From assembly GCA_965224085.1 (NCBI GenBank), contig CBDCYI010000011.1, forward strand, positions 608,001-672,000: DNA of 64,000 nucleotides, written 5' to 3'. Origin of the DNA: Candidatus Marinacidobacterales bacterium. GTDB taxonomy: Bacteria > Acidobacteriota > Vicinamibacteria > Marinacidobacterales > SMYC01. Below the pieces are notes generated by a model. That model ran no database searches, was not told where the DNA came from, and saw only the letters and a program-made list of their open reading frames with translations. This document shows, in pieces, positions 16,648 through 53,214 of the stretch (its first letter is position 1; each line of letters opens with the position of its first letter). Made by a program: the position numbers and the translations under genes.

Positions 16648-18458
16648 TCATGAGAGCCATAATTGCCATCGCACTATTATCGGCTGCCGCAGCCGCGCAA
16701 GACGACGCGAAGGACGATGCTTGGGACGTGGGCGCCACTTTCGGCCCCACGAGCCCGCTCGAGTTCGAGACCACCGAAGGTACGTGGATGAACCTCGACA
16801 TCAGCCCCGACGGTACCCAGATCGTCTTCGACCTTCTCGGAGATCTCTACGTGATGCCCGTTTTGGGCGGCACGGCGACGCGGCTGACCGAGGGCGCCGC
16901 GTTCGACATGCAGCCGCGTTTTTCCCCGAACGGAGAGAGCATTGCCTTTGCGAGCGACCGCGACGGGGCGACGAATCTATGGATCGTGGACCGGGACGGC
17001 GCGAACCCGCGCCAGGTTTCGAAAGAGAAGAAGTGGTTCATCAACAGCCCGACGTGGTCGGCGGACGGTGACTATCTGTTCGCGCGCCATCATTTCGTCG
17101 CCCAGCGTTCGCTCGGCGCGGGAGAGATCTGGCTCTACCACATCCGCGGCTCCGGCGGTCTTCAAGTCACCGAGAAGGTCACGTTCCAGAAGGACGCGGG
17201 CGAGCCTTCGATCTCACGCGACGGCCGCTATCTTTATTACAGCAAGGACGTCACACCGAGCCCGAAATTCGAGTACAACAAGGATCCGAACGGAGCCATC
17301 TACGCCATCGTGCGGCGCGACCTCGCGACCGGCGACGAGCGCCGCGTGGTGGACATCCAGGGAGGTGCTATGAGCCCTGCCATCTCTCCCGACGGCAAAC
17401 ATCTCGCCTTCATCCGCCGCATCCGACTTCAGAGTCATCTCTACCTCCAGAACATGGAGACGGGCGAGCAGTGGTCGATCTTCGACGGCCTCGACAAAGA
17501 CCTACAAGAAGCCTGGGCCATCCACGGGCTCTACCCGCAATACAGTTGGACCCCTGACGGGAAGAACATTTTCATATGGCGGCACGGCAAGATCTGGCGC
17601 GTGGACGTCGAGGCACAAAAGGGCGCGGAGGTGCCCTTTCGCGCCCGGGTCGAGCAGACGATCCACGACGCTTTGCGCTTTCCTCAAAGAGTCTTCGAGC
17701 CCGAGTTTCCCGTGCGGATGCTGCGCCACGTTGCGACCTCTTCGGACGGTGGGGAAGTCGTCTATAGCGCGCTCGGGCGTCTCTATCGCAAAGTCTTGCC
17801 CGACGGCGCGCCAGCTCGCCTGACGGAGGACGAGCACATCGAGTACGCGCCTTCTTATTCTCCGGACAAAAACACGATTGTCTACGCGACGTGGTCCGAT
17901 GACGAGAAAGGGAGAATCCGCACCATCGCGCCTGACGGCTCCGGAGCGCGTGAGCTCGTCTCGGTGCGTGGGCACTACACCGACCCTTCGTTCTCGCCGG
18001 ATGGGAAGCACATTGTCTATCGCCGGACGACGGGCGACTCGCTTCGCGGCGAGACCTTTGGGACGGATCCCGGTATCTACGTCGTTTCATTGGATGGAGT
18101 GGATGGCGGTGAGCCGTCTCTCGTTCGCGAGTCGGGTGTAGCGCCCCGTTTCGACCACACGGGCGAGCGCGTCTATTTCGCCGAGCGGCGTGACGATAAG
18201 ACCCTGCTCGCGAGCGTCGAGCTCGACGGTAGCGAAGAGATCGTCCATCTGGAATCCGAGAACGCCACTCAGATCGTGCCGTCCCCCGACGGGCGTTGGG
18301 TGGCTTTCGTCGAGCGGTTCAAAGTGTTCGTAGCGCCTTTTCCTCGCACGGGCCGTACGGTGAGTATCGGGCCGGAAGGATCCGCGATCCCCATCAAAGA
18401 AGTCTCGGGCGATATGGACTCCCCACGCCGGATCAAGAGAAAACGTTCTTCGTAATAG

Positions 18459-19716
18459 TCATCCGCGATTCGCTTTTTTTGTGGGCCACCGGGAGGGGTC
18501 GTAAAGGGTTCCTTGTCGAAGCATCGCAATGGCGATGGGGAGAATGCGGTCCATGACGCCTCTGAGAGCTCTGGCATGGCTGTGGCCTCTGTCACGAAGC
18601 CGGTCGTAGTGTTCTTTGAAGTGGGGGTCGTGCAAAACGGCAGTGCGTGCCCAATGGTGGAGAGCATTATTGAGGGGCAAAGAGCGAGCTCTCCTCATCA
18701 GGATCGTTGGTCGCAACTGACCGCGCTTGCCGCTCTTTTTTGTGACAGGAGCAATGCCGCCGAGAGTCCTGAAGGCGTTGAGATTACGGAGCCGAATGGG
18801 GTCGTGGGCATAGCAGAGCACGGAGGCGAGCACGTAAGCACCGACGCCGGGCAAAGAGGCAAGAATGGCAGGGTCGGAGCAATGCTCGTCGGTTAGTGCT
18901 TGCACGCGCTTGAACCACTTCTCGAGATGCTGGTCGGAGGCACGACGATGTTGTCGAACGAGGAGCAACTGCTGGAGTAGTAGTTGGAGATGCTCGGCGG
19001 TAGCTTGAGTGGTTGCGGTTGCGACCCGGAGAGGTTTTTGTTTGAGGGTATCGAGGATCTTCTCGGGTTTTAGACGTCGGATGCGGTGTTTTTGAGCGAG
19101 GGTCTCAATGGAGTGGCGGCTAAGAGGGTTGGGGCTGGATTCGAAGAAGAGTTTTAGGAGCTCGCAGAAAAAAGCGTCGAGAGCCTTGTCCTTTGGCGCG
19201 AGCGAGACGAGGTGAGGCCAGCAACGAGTAAGGAGTTCTCGGATCTGCGAGCTGAGGGCCACATGGTTTTTGACGAGTTGGTCGCGGGTACTCAGCAACC
19301 CGCGCATAGCGAGGATCTCCGTAGGTGGGAGATGCAAGCGCTGAAAGCGGTGGCCGTCGGTTCTGAGCGAATCGGCGAGAACGAAGGCGTCTCGCCGATC
19401 ATCCTTGGCGCCGCTCATAGAATGCCGGTCGCGGAAACGGTCGACCTGCTTGGGATTGATGGAGAAAATGGCGATGCCGTGGTCAAGAAAGAGCTCGACG
19501 ACGGCCCCATGAGGTTTTTCGATCGCCACCGCGATGCGCTCGGTATCTTGCGAGGTCTCTTCCAAAAGCCAGTCGATGGTTCCCGATAGTCCTTCGCGGC
19601 TATGGGGGGAAGCCTCTCTCCGCCAAGAAGTTACCTTTGGCATCGACCACACTGGCCAAGTGAAGCCATTGACCCAGGTCGATACCGACGAAGAAGTCGT
19701 ATTTGAGTTGATTCAT
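18459..19716 (-). CDS. IS110 DEDD recombinase/transposase (frameshift in the G6 run at 19604-19609)
   Basis: FFVGIDLG, AVAIEKP, KDDRRDAFVLAD, SLPGVG, GIAPVTKKSGK, HARALR. Confidence 0.92.
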
Positions 19717-19734
19717 GGAAGAACTCATTTCCGC

Positions 19735-19885
19735 CAGCGCATGTGATGTTTCATCGGCCCCTGTACTGGCGCTCGAAGCGCAACTCCCCACTGGATGTCC
19801 ATCACAAAAGAATTGCCGGCACGCATGTCCATTCCTGGCGCTAGGAGCGCAGGGCGACGTATGGCGTTGCCGGCAAGCTGCTGAC
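19735..19885 (-). ncRNA. Putative IS110 bridge RNA (target- and donor-binding loops)
   Basis: Two stem-loops (19742-48/19800-06 and 19813-21/19868-76), each with an inner hairpin flanked by segments that match the element ends or the insertion site. Confidence 0.8.
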
Positions 19886-19923
19886 GAAATCGAAAATAGT
19901 CCAAGCTCATCGTGATATTTGCT

Positions 19924-20340
19924 CTACCATGGCAATCGGAGTTGTCGCGCGATGCCACGAGTTCGTGCTCGGTTTTTTCTCGGTAGTTTCGGGCGAAGCA
20001 CGTCCGAGAGTTTTTCTCGAATGTAAAGAACATAAGGCGGGTCTAGATATTGACTTTGCACTTCCTGGAGCACAGGTGAAAAATAACGAAGGGAGCGAAT
20101 GGGCTGCAGTGGCTCCTCATGTTCTTGTAGCTCCCTACGAGCGCAACCCAGAAGTAGGGCACACTCGAATTCGTGTAACGGGACTCCTTGGCGGTAGAGC
20201 TGCGTCGCGATGAAGCGGTCGTCGCGCCGTGGCCGCTCAGGTGTGTTCGGAATGGAAAGATAGAGGTCCAAAATCGTCCGGACGTAATTGTTTTCTGTCA
20301 GAGCATCGCTCGTGAGCGGTTCATTACCCAGCTTCGACAT
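19924..20340 (-). CDS. IS110 accessory hypothetical protein, 138 aa
   Basis: Intact ORF (YVRTILDLY...ALLLGCARR...PIRSLRYF) whose start overlaps the upstream ORF; lies inside the element. Confidence 0.7.
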   Translation of the reverse strand: MSKLGNEPLTSDALTENNYVRTILDLYLSIPNTPERPRRDDRFIATQLYRQGVPLHEFECALLLGCARRELQEHEEPLQPIRSLRYFSPVLQEVQSQYLDPPYVLYIREKLSDVLRPKLPRKNRARTRGIARQLRLPW

Positions 20341-20738
20341 CCTTTAGCCTCCCGCGTCGGCCGCAGATACAGCATTTGGCATATCTGATACTGTCAATCT
20401 TCGTTTTCATTGAATGAGCCATCGGGCCACTAGCTTGAATTTCACGAACTCCTAGACTGCCAGAATTACTGGGGTGAATGAACCCTTGCTCCGTCACTAT
20501 TTTCGCCGCCTGGCGTAGACGATAATTCTGTTGCCGAGCCGCGTGGAGTTTTCGTGAGTTGAAACCTTTCTGGTAATTTCGGTTATTTTCGCGCTGGTTC
20601 TTATCGCCGGGTTTCGTCACGGCAGGTTGGACCGCAGTAGCACTGTCCCTGGTAACATGACTTGCAGATGAAGAAAGGCATCCCACAGCTTTTGTTGCGG
20701 CAGAAAAGCCGGAGAAGAACGACAGGTTTGGTGGCCAT
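20324..20738 (-). CDS. IS110 accessory Cys-rich (putative Zn-binding) basic protein, frameshift near 20603
   Basis: CRNKSC..FFICKSC..CYCGPTCR, then NRNYQ..HAARQQNYR and a C-terminal CCICG. Confidence 0.65.
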
Positions 20739-22445
20739 TCGGAACTCAGCAAAGTGCTGGACGATGGCCGCCCGGATGTGAGAGGCTAGCTTCAACTTGT
20801 AGTGGAGCGCCTCCTCCGGGGGCCATCCAAACATCAGAACCCCGGTCGTTTGTAGCGGCTGGGGCTCACTATTGTCGCACAGCAGGTTCACCCTCTTCTT
20901 GCCGGCGCGAGACGATCTGACTGACTCGCGCCAAAGGCGCGAGAGGATGCTGGCCTCGCGCCAGAGGCGCGGGATGAGGCCTTGTACACAGACATTTCCT
21001 ACCGACTCTTCCCGCAACACACGCTTTCGCTGCACTGATGCTTCGGCAAGCGTACAGGGCTACTACGTCCATTGGTCCGGTGACAGCGGGAAGATCCACT
21101 GGAGTCTCGGACCGGAGCTCTACACGCTTTCGCTCGACCCGACCCTCGAGCTCGAGGGCGAAGCGGCGCGGACTGCAATCGGTTTCATGACCGCGAGCGA
21201 CCAGCCGTCCGGGAGCATCACGCTCGTCGGTGCCCGCATCGTCACGATGGACGGGGACCGTGTGATCGAGAACGGGACCGTGGTCGTGGACGAGAACCGC
21301 ATCACGGCGGTGGGACCGTCCGATTCCGTGTCGGTGCCGTCCGGCGCCACGCGCATCGATGTCTCTGGCCGCACGATCATTCCGGGCATCGTGGACGTCC
21401 ACGCTCACGTCGGAAGCGAGAGCGGGGGTATCCTCTCGGAGCAAAACTGGAGATTCGTCGCGAACGTGGCCTATGGCGTGACCACCTCGCACGATCCTTC
21501 GAACGGTACGGAGATGGTGTTCACCAACTCCGAGATGATCCGCGCGGGCAAGAAGCTCGGCCCGAGACTCTACTCGACCGGCACGATTCTCTACGGCGCC
21601 GAAACCCCGTTCAAAGCCGTCATCGAGAAATACGACGACGCGCTCGCGCATCTCCGGCGCCTGAAGGCTGTGGGTGCCTTCTCCGTCAAGAGCTACAACC
21701 AGCAGCGTCGTGATGTACGCCAGATGATCATCAAAGCGGCGCGCGAGCTCGAGATGATGGTCGTCCCCGAAGGCGGCTCGCTTCTCTATATGGACGAGAC
21801 CTTCGTCTATGACGGCCATACCGGGCTCGAGCATTCGCTCCCCGTGCCGGTTTTATACGACGACGTCGTGAACTTGTACGGGAGAAGTCGTACCGGCTAC
21901 ACGCCCACGCTCATCGTCGGCTATGGCGGTCTCTCGGGCGAGAATTACTGGTACCAGCACGACGAAGTTTGGGCGAACGAGAACCTGCTCCAGTACACGC
22001 CGCGAGAGATCGTGGATGCGCGCGCACGTCGCCGCACGATGGCGCCCGAGGACGATTTCAACCATGTCCTGATCTCGGAAGGCGCGAAGAAGATCCTCGA
22101 CGCGGGAGGGCTCGTCCAGCTCGGCGCCCACGGACAGCTGCAAGGTCTCGGTGCGCACTGGGAGCTCTGGATGCTCGAGCAAGGCGGGATGACGGAGCTC
22201 GAAGCGCTCCGATCCGCCACGCTCATGGGTGCGGAATATATCGGCCTCGACGGCGAGCTCGGCTCGATCGAGGAAGGCAAGCTCGCCGACCTCGTCGTGC
22301 TCGGCAAAAACCCACTCGAGAACATCCGGAACAGCGAGAGCGTTCAGATGGTCATGCTCAACGGCCGGCTCTACGACGCGGCAACGATGAGCGAGATCGG
22401 GAACCATCCCAAGGAGCGAAAGCCGTTCTACTGGCAGTCTGCGCG

Positions 22446-22733
22446 ATGAGCCTGCTCATGCTTCTGCTGCTTGCTCAGTTCAACTACGATGCGAAAGAGG
22501 CGCTCGCTGTGGACGCGTCGGAGGTCGAGCTCGTCGAGGGCGCGCGCTTGCAGGAAATCTCCTATGCGAGTCCCAAAGGCGGGCGCGTCCCCGGATATTT
22601 GATCGCGCCTCAAGGCGCCGGACCGCATGCGGGCATCGTGTTCGTTCACTGGGGCCAGGGAAACCGTACCGAGTTCGTCGCGGCCACCCAGGCCGCGATG
22701 AGGCGTATCGCTTCCGACGCTACCCAGCCATAG
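22446..22733 (+). pseudogene. Alpha/beta hydrolase N-terminal fragment
   Basis: Signal peptide, ISYASPKGGRVPGYL, VFVHWGQG; truncated. Confidence 0.55.
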
Positions 22734-50879: not shown

Positions 50880-52397
50880 ACGAGCGAACGCAAAACGAAG
50901 TCATCCGTTTGTTCTACACCAGAACCTCCCAGAGGCGGATCGCCAAGCTAGTCGGCATTAGTCGCAAGAGCGTCGCCAAGATTGTCGAAGCCCACCAGAA
51001 TCAAAGAGCGGGAATATCGGAACCCGCAAAATCAAAACGTCTCAGCTTGCTCGACTCCTTCGACGAAAAGCTCACCGAGCTTATCGAGCGCTATCCTGAT
51101 ATCACCGCCGTGAGACTACACGAGGAGCTGCGGCTTTCGGGCTTCACTGGCGGATACACCATCGTCAAAGAAAGACTCCGGCAGTTGCGCCCGAAGTCTC
51201 TCAAGCCCTTCGTCGAGCGTTTCGAAACCGGCCCGGGACTCCAGGCCCAGATGGACTACTCCATGTACCGCATCGACTTCACCGCCGAGGGGGCCCCGTA
51301 AGGTCTACGCATTCGGTTTGATCCTTGCCTTCTCTCGCCGTCAGTTCCTGCGCTTCGTGCAAAGCCAAGACCTACCCACCACCCTCAGAGAGCACCAGCG
51401 TGCCTTTGACTACTTTCAGGGAGTGCCCGCCACCTGCCTATACGACAACATGAAGGTGGTAGTGAGCGGTTTCGATGGCTCCCAACCCGTGTTCAATACC
51501 CGCTTTCTGGCCTTCGCTACCCACTACGGTTTTCAGCCACTTTTGTGTCGCCCCGCTCGGCCTCAAACCAAAGGCAAGGTCGAGAGACCCTTTCACTTCA
51601 TCGATAAAAATATCCTCAATGCACGTCGCTTCTCAGACTTGAACCATCTCAATGACGTCGCCGAACAATGGCTTGCCGAGGTCAGCGACAAGAGAGTTCA
51701 CCGTACCACCGGACAACCCCCCATCGACCGGTTTCAACAAGAACGCTCTCACCTGTTGGCTCTTCCCCACAAACCCTTCGATACCGCTGAAGTCCTCTAC
51801 CGCACCGTGGACGCCGAGGGATACGTCGCCTACCTGCAGAACTTCTACTCTGTTCCCTGGCAACGCACCGGCGAGTTTGTTCCGGTGCGAATCACCGACA
51901 ACGAGCTCGTCGTCTACGCTCCCAATATCAAGGAGATCGCGCGCCACAAACTCTTCGCTCGGTCGGTCTCGGACGAAAAAGCCACAGAGCAAAGCCATCG
52001 ATCCCCGCACTCGCTCAAGCAGCGCATCGAAGTACTCCGAAAACGCTTTGCCGAGTTCGGTGCCCTCGGAGAACGCTTTTTCGACGAACTGCTCCGCAAT
52101 CGGCGATTCGGCAAAGATGAAGCTCTCCGAATCCTCGCCCTTCACGCCTTTTATCGCTTCGACGACCTCAAGACTGCACTGGAGAGGGCCACTCGATACC
52201 GTGCCTTTTCCCGTTCTGCCATCGAGCGCATCCTCGCGGCTCAGGCTCAGCCCAAAACCACTTTCGAGTCTTTGAGTGAAACTGCACGACAAAGCCTCGA
52301 CGAGCTTCTGCGAAAACCCGCCGTGTCACCGCGGCCCGCATCCGAGTACCAACAACTGCTTGACGGATCTAAAACCGATGACGACGAACCACAATAA
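50876..52397 (+). CDS. istA: IS21 transposase IstA (frameshift near 51295)
   Basis: RFETGPGLQAQMD, LYDNMK, PQTKGKVERP. Confidence 0.9.
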
Positions 52398-53214
52398 ATC
52401 CAAGAGCCCCGATGAGCTCCGCGAGCGTTGTCTTGCTCACTTTGCCACCTTGAACATCCCCTTGCGCTCAGCTCAGCTCGACCAAGCCCTCGAAAAAGCT
52501 GACCACGATGCACTCTCTCACCTTGCTTTTCTCGAAAATCTCATCGGACACCAGGTCGACCAACGCCGTGAACGCTCCACCGAGCGACGCATTCGCCAAG
52601 TCAGATTCCAAGAACGAAAAACTCTCGAGACTTTCGACTGGAAGTTCAATCCAAAGGCTTTCGACAAATTACAGATCGAACAGCTCGCCTCCGCCGATTT
52701 CATTCGCCGACGCGCTAACTTGATTTTCGTCGGTCAATCCGGGGTGGGTAAATCTCACATCATGCAGGCCATCGGCATCAGGGCTTGCGCCCTGGGCTTT
52801 CGTCCCCTTGACCGAACCTCCGCCGATCTCATCGCCGATCTTACCGCCTCGCTCGCCGACAAAACTCTTCCTCAAAAACTCCGCCGATATAAAAGCCCCG
52901 ACCTGCTCATCATCGACGAGTTCGGCTTCGACAGAATCGAACGCTCCGAATGCCCCGAAGCCGCACATCTCCTCTACAAGATCATCGCTGCCCGACATCA
53001 GTACCGTTCCACCGCCCTCGTTACCAACGTCGACTTCGAAAAGTGGGCCGACTATCTCGCCGACGGACCCCTCGCCATGGCCTTTCTCGACATACTCGTT
53101 GAGGGCGCCATCATCCTCAAAATCAACGGCAAGTCCTTCCGCGCTCGGAGATCTCATACCGCCCACGCTAAAGACACTTCTTCTGACTCTCCTCGTTCCA
53201 CCACGCAACCGTAA
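52378..53214 (+). CDS. istB: IS21 ATPase IstB
   Basis: Walker A GQSGVGKS, Walker B LLIIDE, GKSFR. Confidence 0.92.
   Translation: MTTNHNKSKSPDELRERCLAHFATLNIPLRSAQLDQALEKADHDALSHLAFLENLIGHQVDQRRERSTERRIRQVRFQERKTLETFDWKFNPKAFDKLQIEQLASADFIRRRANLIFVGQSGVGKSHIMQAIGIRACALGFRPLDRTSADLIADLTASLADKTLPQKLRRYKSPDLLIIDEFGFDRIERSECPEAAHLLYKIIAARHQYRSTALVTNVDFEKWADYLADGPLAMAFLDILVEGAIILKINGKSFRARRSHTAHAKDTSSDSPRSTTQP

Follow-up and report, generated by a model that had tools for sequence, protein, structure and literature searches.

A non-canonical IS110-group insertion sequence with an accessory module shared with IS21-family elements, present as a probably inactive copy in an acidobacterial genome

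Work on bridge-RNA recombinases as minimal tools for genome writing assumes that a single protein and a single RNA make up the whole system. At a locus in the genome of a Candidatus Marinacidobacterales bacterium (GenBank assembly GCA_965224085.1), a natural element of this kind carries more than that. A stretch of 64,000 nucleotides of contig CBDCYI010000011.1 (positions 608,001 to 672,000 of the forward strand; this whole stretch is called the window, and coordinates refer to it) was analyzed, in which a first-pass annotation made from the sequence alone had described an IS110 bridge-recombinase element with two accessory genes, ORF1 and ORF2, inside an amidohydrolase gene. Our analysis makes it very likely that the element is a non-canonical IS110-group insertion sequence (IS), represented here by a probably inactive copy. 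Its bridge-RNA-guided mobility at a CC core is shown by sequence comparison, and its two-gene module may derive from IS21-family elements and act in a transposition step that both families share.

Insertion site, ends and copies of the element

The element occupies positions 18418-21058 on the minus strand (2641 bp; 2639 bp in intact copies) and separates the 5' part of a PD40 beta-propeller/amidohydrolase gene (16650-18417, plus strand) from its 3' part, which encodes the amidohydrolase domain (21059-22449, plus strand). The plus-strand junctions read GATATGG^ACTCCCC at 18417/18418 and GTACAGG^GCTAC at 21058/21059 (^ marks an element boundary or a limit of the core), with GG at both. On the element strand this corresponds to a CC core, of which one copy lies within the element (21057-21058) and the second in the flank (18416-18417). 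Joining both gene parts by script yielded 3159 nt in frame with a single terminal stop, encoding 1052 aa (..SGDMGYYVHWSG..), and Pfam placed PD40 repeats left of the joint and Amidohydro_1 right of it. The empty site was detected in Logan contigs from two runs of two studies, in which position 18415 is joined to 21057 with 2641 nt skipped and an ambiguity of 2 nt (run X4: depth 5.67, side 83; run X6: depth 32.9, side 30). Because the empty-site contigs come from two studies, an uninterrupted allele exists in nature and the insertion was precise with a 2-nt core. The first-pass annotation had read the split gene, the GG at both junctions and the restored 1052-aa frame in the same way, and the contigs join exactly at the point it had predicted.

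By BLAST against the 6.87-Mb assembly, three further full copies of 2639 bp (99.85% identical) were found on three contigs, as well as one full-length copy with 85% identity and others, partial or rearranged, with 86%, 91% and 77%. The ends of the window element are common to four full copies in differing flanks, and all full copies are bounded by ..C^CC-TGTACGCT....GGGGAGT^CC-AT.. in unrelated flanks, which identifies the whole 2.64 kb as the mobile unit. Both ORFs thus lie inside an IS110-group mobile unit, as had been proposed, and a search of the window element for an inverted repeat pair bracketing ORF1 and ORF2, by which the two genes would form a unit of their own, found none. The CC core is present at both sides of 5/5 full copies in the genome and at all recognised ends in relatives (21 left, 17 right). 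The left-end terminus (donor left side; 21029-21058, minus strand) reads CC-TGTACGCTTGCC... and contains a candidate -10 element, TACGCT, at 21049-21054. The right end (18418-18458, minus strand) reads ..TCTCTTGATCCGGCGTGGGGAGT and contains a candidate -35 element, TTGATC, at 18431-18436. A sub-terminal inverted repeat of 14 nt, 93% complementary, was noticed at 18512-18525 and 21037-21050.

The recombinase gene (18459-19716, minus strand) encodes 418 aa in intact copies. The intact protein matched PF01548 (DEDD_Tnp_IS110; 2.8e-31, profile 1-155 of 155), PF02371 (Transposase_20; 1.1e-11) and the NCBIfam model NF033542 'IS110 family RNA-guided transposase' (162.9 bits, cut-off 140), and by these domain profiles it is assigned to the IS110 group. 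As is characteristic of this group, the window element has a 2-nt core at both junctions and no terminal inverted repeats, and it departs from the compact single-gene IS110 plan by its three ORFs, its 2.64 kb and the roughly 1.1 kb between terminus and RNA. IS621, a canonical IS110 element with a DEDD + Tnp recombinase and a two-loop bridge RNA 5' of the recombinase, is described in PMC11208160 as likewise having a 2-nt core at both junctions and no terminal inverted repeats, with a -35 element in the right end and a -10 element in the left end that would come together in a circle, whereas IS621 and canonical IS110 elements have about 1.3-1.6 kb and one gene. The IS1111 group, as presented in the same source, shares the recombinase family and RNA guidance but carries the RNA in a long right end and has sub-terminal inverted repeats of 7-17 bp, whereas in the window element the RNA is located upstream of the recombinase.

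Comparison with the three other copies suggests that the window copy is probably defective. It differs from them at four positions: a substitution in the leader, an indel plus a substitution at 20602/20603, and, near 19604-19609, a C-run that is longer by one C. The change at 20602/20603 shifts the frame of ORF1, and the extra C shifts that of the recombinase. Both extra bases are missing from the collapsed element contigs of three runs, which fits either true lesions of the window copy or, for the homopolymer, an assembly error. Frameshifts in homopolymer runs are frequent in long-read assemblies, and two frameshifts, one of them in such a run, might raise the suspicion that the arrangement as a whole stems from misassembly or from chance juxtaposition in one genome. 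We consider this extremely improbable, as the element occurs four times in the genome, in a named metagenome-assembled genome (MAG; locus L013), on 28 metagenome contigs and in contigs of public runs of several studies. In intact copies ORF1 encodes 137 aa (start MATKP at element position 321) and ORF2 138 aa. A Cys-rich ORF as announced by the first-pass annotation is therefore present, but its 144-aa form was a product of the frameshift plus translated leader.

The young family also has four derivatives shortened by deletion or truncation (G000:C5:333088-334698, G000:C9:115784-118249, G000:C5:1945126-1946508 and G000:C4:1703792-1704400, G000 being this genome). One of them lacks element positions 1335-2363 and thereby most of the recombinase, but retains both ends together with the module and the bridge RNA; one carries an internal deletion that is considered below, and the two remaining ones are truncated. 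Two rearranged copies are older, G000:C4:1482119-1483630 (91% identical; copy F) and G000:C11:764578-766945 (86%), in the second of which element position 291 is joined to an inverted 28-nt right end. Recombination between copies, or with pseudo-sites, may have produced them. Copy F starts at element position 1130, near 19929, and lies between two different kinase genes of opposite orientation. It is the sole related copy to end near 19925, where the first-pass annotation had envisaged that copies with a core of their own might end. A short form with its own left end was ruled out, as copy F has neither left end nor core and its flanks belong to the two different kinase genes; it is a rearranged remnant.

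The bridge RNA, its guides and the target site

Across 24 related sequences, no part of the element is better conserved than the 200-nt spacer between ORF2 and the recombinase gene, in which variation is limited to four short guide segments. From structure alignment and guide matches, a bridge RNA core of about 150 nt was placed at 19735-19884 (minus strand), with a target-binding stem-loop at about 19813-19878 and a donor-binding stem-loop at about 19742-19808. In the two-stem-loop structure of 34 pairs, 99.6% of cells are paired in 21 relatives and 4 pairs are changed on both sides, whereas in slid controls (3' partners shifted by 1-3 columns) 16-43% of cells pair. A search of 18000-21500 against Rfam (evalue mode) matched no family.

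In the donor loop, the 5' guide GTGGGGAGT repeats the final 9 nt of the right end exactly, and GTACAGG is complementary to the left end CCTGTAC. The target loop contains ACGTCGCC and GGAATGG, which fit the flanks ..ACGTCAC^CC^ATTCC.. of other copies. About 1.17 kb separates the start of the bridge RNA from the left terminus. Scanning metagenomes with the ORF2 profile yielded 49 loci, and guides and ends were counted in the IS110-type loci among them. The donor guide GTATAGG goes with the left end CCTATAC in 4/4 loci (L080, L081, L082, L084) and GTACAGG with CCTGTAC in 12/12. This co-variation in 16/16 loci indicates that a guide about 1.2 kb inside the element specifies the far terminus, so the position that the first-pass annotation had given to the bridge RNA, well inside the element and not at its end, is borne out. 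The 5' donor guide agrees with the right end in 16/17 loci, with L085 as the exception; L092, whose right end was not alignable, was left out of this count. Genes and a distance of over 1 kb can accordingly separate a bridge RNA from the donor end that it specifies.

Two further observations were made on the bridge RNA. The leader contains an 18-nt stretch (20819-20836) with 78% complementarity to the donor-binding stem, in its 3' half (19744-19761). A regulatory meaning of this complementarity was rejected, since no co-variation was seen by eye and equal matches are common in the region. In contigs of run X15, which carries a metatranscriptomic label, depth at the bridge-RNA core (19755-19871) was 222, compared with 0-13 over ORF1/ORF2 and 0-0.6 just downstream. 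This peak was not accepted as a sign of expression, since the data are contigs, the RNA label is a guess, and DNA runs also peak at this most conserved segment.

The left flanks in relatives carried a ..tagacctc(g/a)c^CC motif in 21/21 cases, and together with four of the five full own copies they gave ..(t/a)AGACCTC(G/A)C^CC^AT(G/C/T)CC... Translated, the flanks of copies B, C and E match Pkinase from profile position 13 onward, right after the glycine-rich loop, and the element is always antisense to the kinase gene. Judged by these matches, the guides direct antisense insertion into DNA for the Gly-rich loop (G-x-G-G-M-G-E-V-Y) of Ser/Thr protein kinases, and the conserved codons of this loop are an unusual choice of target. 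The site in the window reads GTAGTAGC^CC^ATATCG on the element strand (GATATGG^GCTACTAC on the plus strand) and matches the guides poorly. It is an off-consensus look-alike site in the amidohydrolase gene, in line with the tolerance described in bioRxiv 10.64898/2026.08.14.744561.

That the target might be a highly repeated genome sequence was also considered and rejected: a 14-mer built from the guides had no perfect site and 3 sites with one mismatch, and allowing up to 2 mismatches gave 107, compared with a mean of 80.7 for shuffled patterns. Seven of the 107 near-matches fall in GxGxxGxV contexts. At L092, in an unusual junction, the right end breaks off just past TTGACA, and what follows looks like an intact kinase-loop target (left flank, CC, right flank).

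The accessory module in two transposon families

The order of a 320-nt leader, ORF1, ORF2, RNA and recombinase had been given correctly in the first-pass annotation. The structured leader (20739-21028, minus strand) has conserved hairpins, among them a duplicated CGCGCC-N3-GGCGCG and one of 9-11 bp, GAGCCCCGG..CCGGGGCTC. It is regarded as non-coding because reading frames across it differ between relatives, and RNAalifold on a 16-sequence alignment (A4) gave 44 pairs, 5 of them with compensatory changes. ORF1 (20324-20738, minus strand) encodes a Cys-rich basic protein with a long basic helix and conserved Cys at positions 13 and 35 (90% or more each), 18, 25, 28, 39, 122 and 125, and is probably zinc-binding. 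ORF2 (19924-20340, minus strand), whose start overlaps the ORF1 stop by 17 nt and which is intact here, encodes an all-helical protein; its AlphaFold2 model has five helices (pLDDT 78). The ORF1 model (pLDDT 52) was too poor for a fold search. The dN/dS values were 0.28-0.57 for ORF1, 0.16-0.56 for ORF2 and 0.15-0.26 for the recombinase, and ORF1 and ORF2 were without stops in 11/11 loci checked. With dN/dS below 1, both ORFs are under purifying selection.

Searches of both proteins against Pfam, NCBIfam, PADLOC and PHROGs gave no significant match, searches against PDB sequence profiles gave 0 matches, and Foldseek of the ORF2 model against the PDB gave none below E 1. Against BFVD the best E for this model was 0.12, and ranks 4 and 39 were replication-initiation or replisome-organizer proteins, a weak lead by which ORF2 would faintly resemble helical domains of replication-initiation proteins. 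Pfam searches with single members returned RepB_primase_C for 3/29 ORF2 (best E 0.0055) and Rhodanese_C for 7/20 ORF1 (best E 0.0059), which we treat as leads and not as an assignment. In the ESM Atlas both ORFs fell into unnamed clusters only. The predicted complex of ORF1 and ORF2 had a score of 0.00, which says nothing about binding either way. A search for longer fused forms of ORF2 found none, which is weak evidence, and neither ORF1 (IS21-type) nor ORF2 matched PLSDB plasmids by tblastn. An ORF1 profile collected 3599 cluster representatives at E up to 1e-3 among 1.84 billion proteins, so that ORF1 represents a large unnamed family.

Both ORFs co-occur with this recombinase clade, as had been anticipated. 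By tblastn, the layout ORF1-ORF2-RNA-recombinase, or the part of it that the contig holds, was found in 28 of the 49 metagenome loci (L070-L096, L098), with identities of 45-89% for ORF2, 47-79% for ORF1 and 58-94% for the recombinase, and with the left end 279-320 nt 5' of ORF1. That the proteins are dedicated to IS110, as had also been assumed, did not hold: their homologues and the leader also occur in IS21-family elements, among which the IS110-linked ORF2s form a derived clade. The ORF2 profile found 22/401 genomes of the same phylum, often with 5-10 copies each (a tally that takes in the own genome and the unpublished genome G049). In 23 of the 27 genome loci that were fetched, ORF2 directly follows the AAA+ helper gene istB, and in 8 to 10 of these ORF1 directly precedes the DDE transposase gene istA. 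The others are L013, with the IS110 arrangement, and three Bryobacterales loci (L015-L018) with neither arrangement; tblastn detected no nearby recombinase, istA or istB at L015, L016, L017 and L018. The IS21-type arrangement was likewise present in 20/49 metagenome loci and in loci of a Gemmatimonadota and an Acidimicrobiia MAG.

The limits of the IS21 elements were read from two genomes with three identical copies each. These elements measure 3363 and 3392 bp and have TGT...ACA inverted repeats that enclose a leader of 291-306 nt, ORF1, istA, istB and ORF2. The window element shares only the accessory genes and the leader with these 3.36-3.39 kb elements; istA, istB and IS21-type TGT..ACA inverted repeats were not found in it, and its movement follows IS110 chemistry. 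A profile of the IS110-type leader (nhmmer) matched the region 5' of ORF1 in 5/28 IS21-type loci (E 4e-12 to 1e-3). As the match begins at profile position 32, the first ~30 nt, which form the IS110 terminus, are the only part of the leader that is not shared. In a maximum-likelihood tree of 62 ORF2 rows with midpoint root, 22 IS110-linked rows formed one clade (99/98), the neighbours of which are IS21-linked.

Variants of the module proteins were also observed. The protein P0160 joins an ORF1-like N-terminus to a Phage_integrase domain, and P0140 joins one to Mu-transpos_C_2 and IstB fragments, probably as an internally deleted IS21. In L058 (genome G230) and some other IS21-type copies ORF2 is in the istB frame without a stop between (upstream open frame up to 401 aa), and sister copies differ in this respect. 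The shared frame suggests an occasional IstB-ORF2 fusion or read-through.

How the module came to stand in an IS110 element was approached through canonical relatives. The next-nearest recombinases in the 401 genomes are 34-44% identical (24 loci in 8 genomes), and none of the 8 genomes has ORF2. These relatives measure 1.59-1.79 kb and have the same left end, CCTGTACC, with GG(G/A)AGT after TTGACA at the right end; their donor guide is likewise GTACAGG, at only 168-331 nt from the left terminus. Termini shared at this degree of identity imply that the ends of the three-gene element are ancestral, and about 1.1 kb was apparently inserted between left terminus and bridge RNA. The module would have come from an IS21-family lineage, in which ORF1 stands before istA and ORF2 after istB, would have entered a canonical IS110 ancestor at its left end, and would then have co-diverged with the recombinase under purifying selection. 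In 4/24 loci a canonical IS110 copy has IS21 genes within 1.5 kb, which offers opportunity for module exchange. At locus L146 (G325:C1:4332226-4336461), a canonical relative of 40% identity with the same ends lies ~300 nt from the ORF1 start of an opposite-strand IS21-type element, near its left end.

The same proximity would also suit another history, in which a canonical IS110 landed downstream of an istAB-deleted IS21 remnant and, after mutation of its donor guide, used a new, distal left end. Expansion through flexible, half-matching end recognition is described in bioRxiv 10.64898/2026.08.14.744561 and would make such a redefined left end conceivable. However, CCTGTAC(C/G), GG(G/A)AGT and GTACAGG are the same in the canonical relatives, which marks the left end as ancestral, and the first ~30 nt are the sole stretch of the leader that has no IS21 homology. 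We regard this history as quite improbable and favour insertion of the module behind an ancestral left end.

The junction promoter and possible roles of the module

When the ends are joined, they read TTGATC-13 nt-CC-TG-TACGCT, the -35/-10 pair with a 17-nt spacer that the first-pass annotation had written. TTGAC(A/C) or TTGATC, a spacing of 17-18 nt and TAnnnT are conserved at the junction across the clade, including the canonical relatives. Within the integrated element a search found no promoter-like site, and in particular no internal sigma-70-like promoter for the bridge RNA. If the bridge RNA is transcribed from the junction promoter, the 290-nt leader and the two ORFs would be read through first.

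By sequence comparison, the DEDD recombinase guided by the two-loop bridge RNA recombines at the CC core. In the role that we propose for it, the module would bind nucleic acid and act on a step common to both families, that is, on the abutted-end or circular intermediate and its junction promoter. A shared-step function is suggested because the module comes first downstream of the junction promoter in both architectures. We put the likelihood of this role somewhat below even, and a passenger role is about equally likely. A wider version, in which leader, zinc-finger protein and helical protein would be a portable helper for transposons with an abutted-end or circular intermediate (DDE IS21, DEDD IS110, perhaps tyrosine recombinase), is more doubtful. 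Such a helper would act on that intermediate, for instance by gating expression from the junction promoter or by stabilising or replicating the excised circle.

A number of observations weigh against this picture. IS110 chemistry works without the module, as the canonical relatives show. ORF1 is a mosaic between lineages: between copy B (L002) and L070 it has a dS of 0.68 and 52% amino acid identity, while ORF2 and the recombinase have a dS of 0.09-0.12, and the ORF1 of copy B is closest to that of L073 (79%). ORF1 is broken in copy E, and one of the young derivatives lacks element positions 650-823, the ORF1/ORF2 junction, and with it part of both ORFs. The IS110-type locus L098 stands outside the main ORF2 clade, where its placement is unresolved, and has no ORF1 in the 281 nt available. 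The direction of transfer from IS21 to IS110 is drawn from midpoint rooting and diversity. As to the guides, the variable base of the right-target guide fits the flank in 8/16 loci (by eye), and for the 14-mer there was neither a perfect free target nor an excess of near-matches in the genome. The -35 element of the junction is well conserved, but the -10 element is weak, with 3/6 matches and TAnnnT alone conserved, and the element's own junction falls below the promoter-search criterion. No circle junction was found among joints in contigs of four runs (X1, X4, X6, X15), in which rare forms are dropped. Co-transcription of the module from a circle promoter, as the first-pass annotation proposed, we only infer.

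An overlapping pair of small genes is a typical toxin-antitoxin layout. ORF1 and ORF2 might accordingly be a selfish or host-directed passenger (an addiction pair, anti-defence or regulatory cargo) with no part in transposition, a reading that we hold to be quite possible. It would account for the occurrence of the module with at least two unrelated transposases, for the joining of an ORF1-like N-terminus to Phage_integrase in P0160, for canonical IS110 relatives without the module and for the exchange of ORF1 between lineages. Cargo is also common in IS110s according to the main text of bioRxiv 10.64898/2026.08.14.744561. On the other hand, PADLOC, PHROGs, Pfam and NCBIfam gave no match that would point to such cargo. 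In IS21-type elements the genes flank istA-istB in a tightly packed order with overlapping neighbours, which is unusual for an autonomous two-gene cassette, and a non-coding leader travels along with them, with the place directly behind the end-junction kept in both families.

Cargo in IS110 elements is already known. Cargo-bearing IS110 loci of up to ~100 kb are reported by Hu, Xie, Yang and Rubin (bioRxiv 10.64898/2026.08.14.744561), and like these expanded IS110s the window element exceeds 2 kb and has extra genes within boundaries set by the bridge RNA. Cargo in the expanded IS110s is described as variable, mostly plasmid-derived, adaptive (resistance) and progressively added, whereas the window element has one fixed module, which has diverged together with the recombinase (ORF2 down to 55% identity) and also occurs in IS21 elements. 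The terms 'IS21', 'zinc' and 'conserved cargo' have 0 occurrences in the main text of that preprint, the supplements of which may list such elements. In the literature searched, whose supplements may hold relevant element lists, we found no IS110 lineage with this fixed accessory pair, no four-gene IS21 subgroup and no kinase-loop targeting by IS110. The fixed cross-family module is, as far as this literature goes, the new part.

A natural lineage thus keeps two extra proteins and a structured leader over long divergence, and the same module occurs in an unrelated transposon family. If the module is a helper, natural bridge-RNA systems would have accessory factors without counterpart in the minimal engineered systems. 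The comparison turns this into a testable question, namely whether ORF1, ORF2 and the leader have an enhancing or regulatory effect on circle formation, expression or insertion.

An IS21-like element of another kind was also noticed in the window. There was no match to the ORF2 profile at this ordinary istA-istB pair (~50939-53154; G000:C11:658939-661154), whose proteins are 26-33% identical to those of L019.

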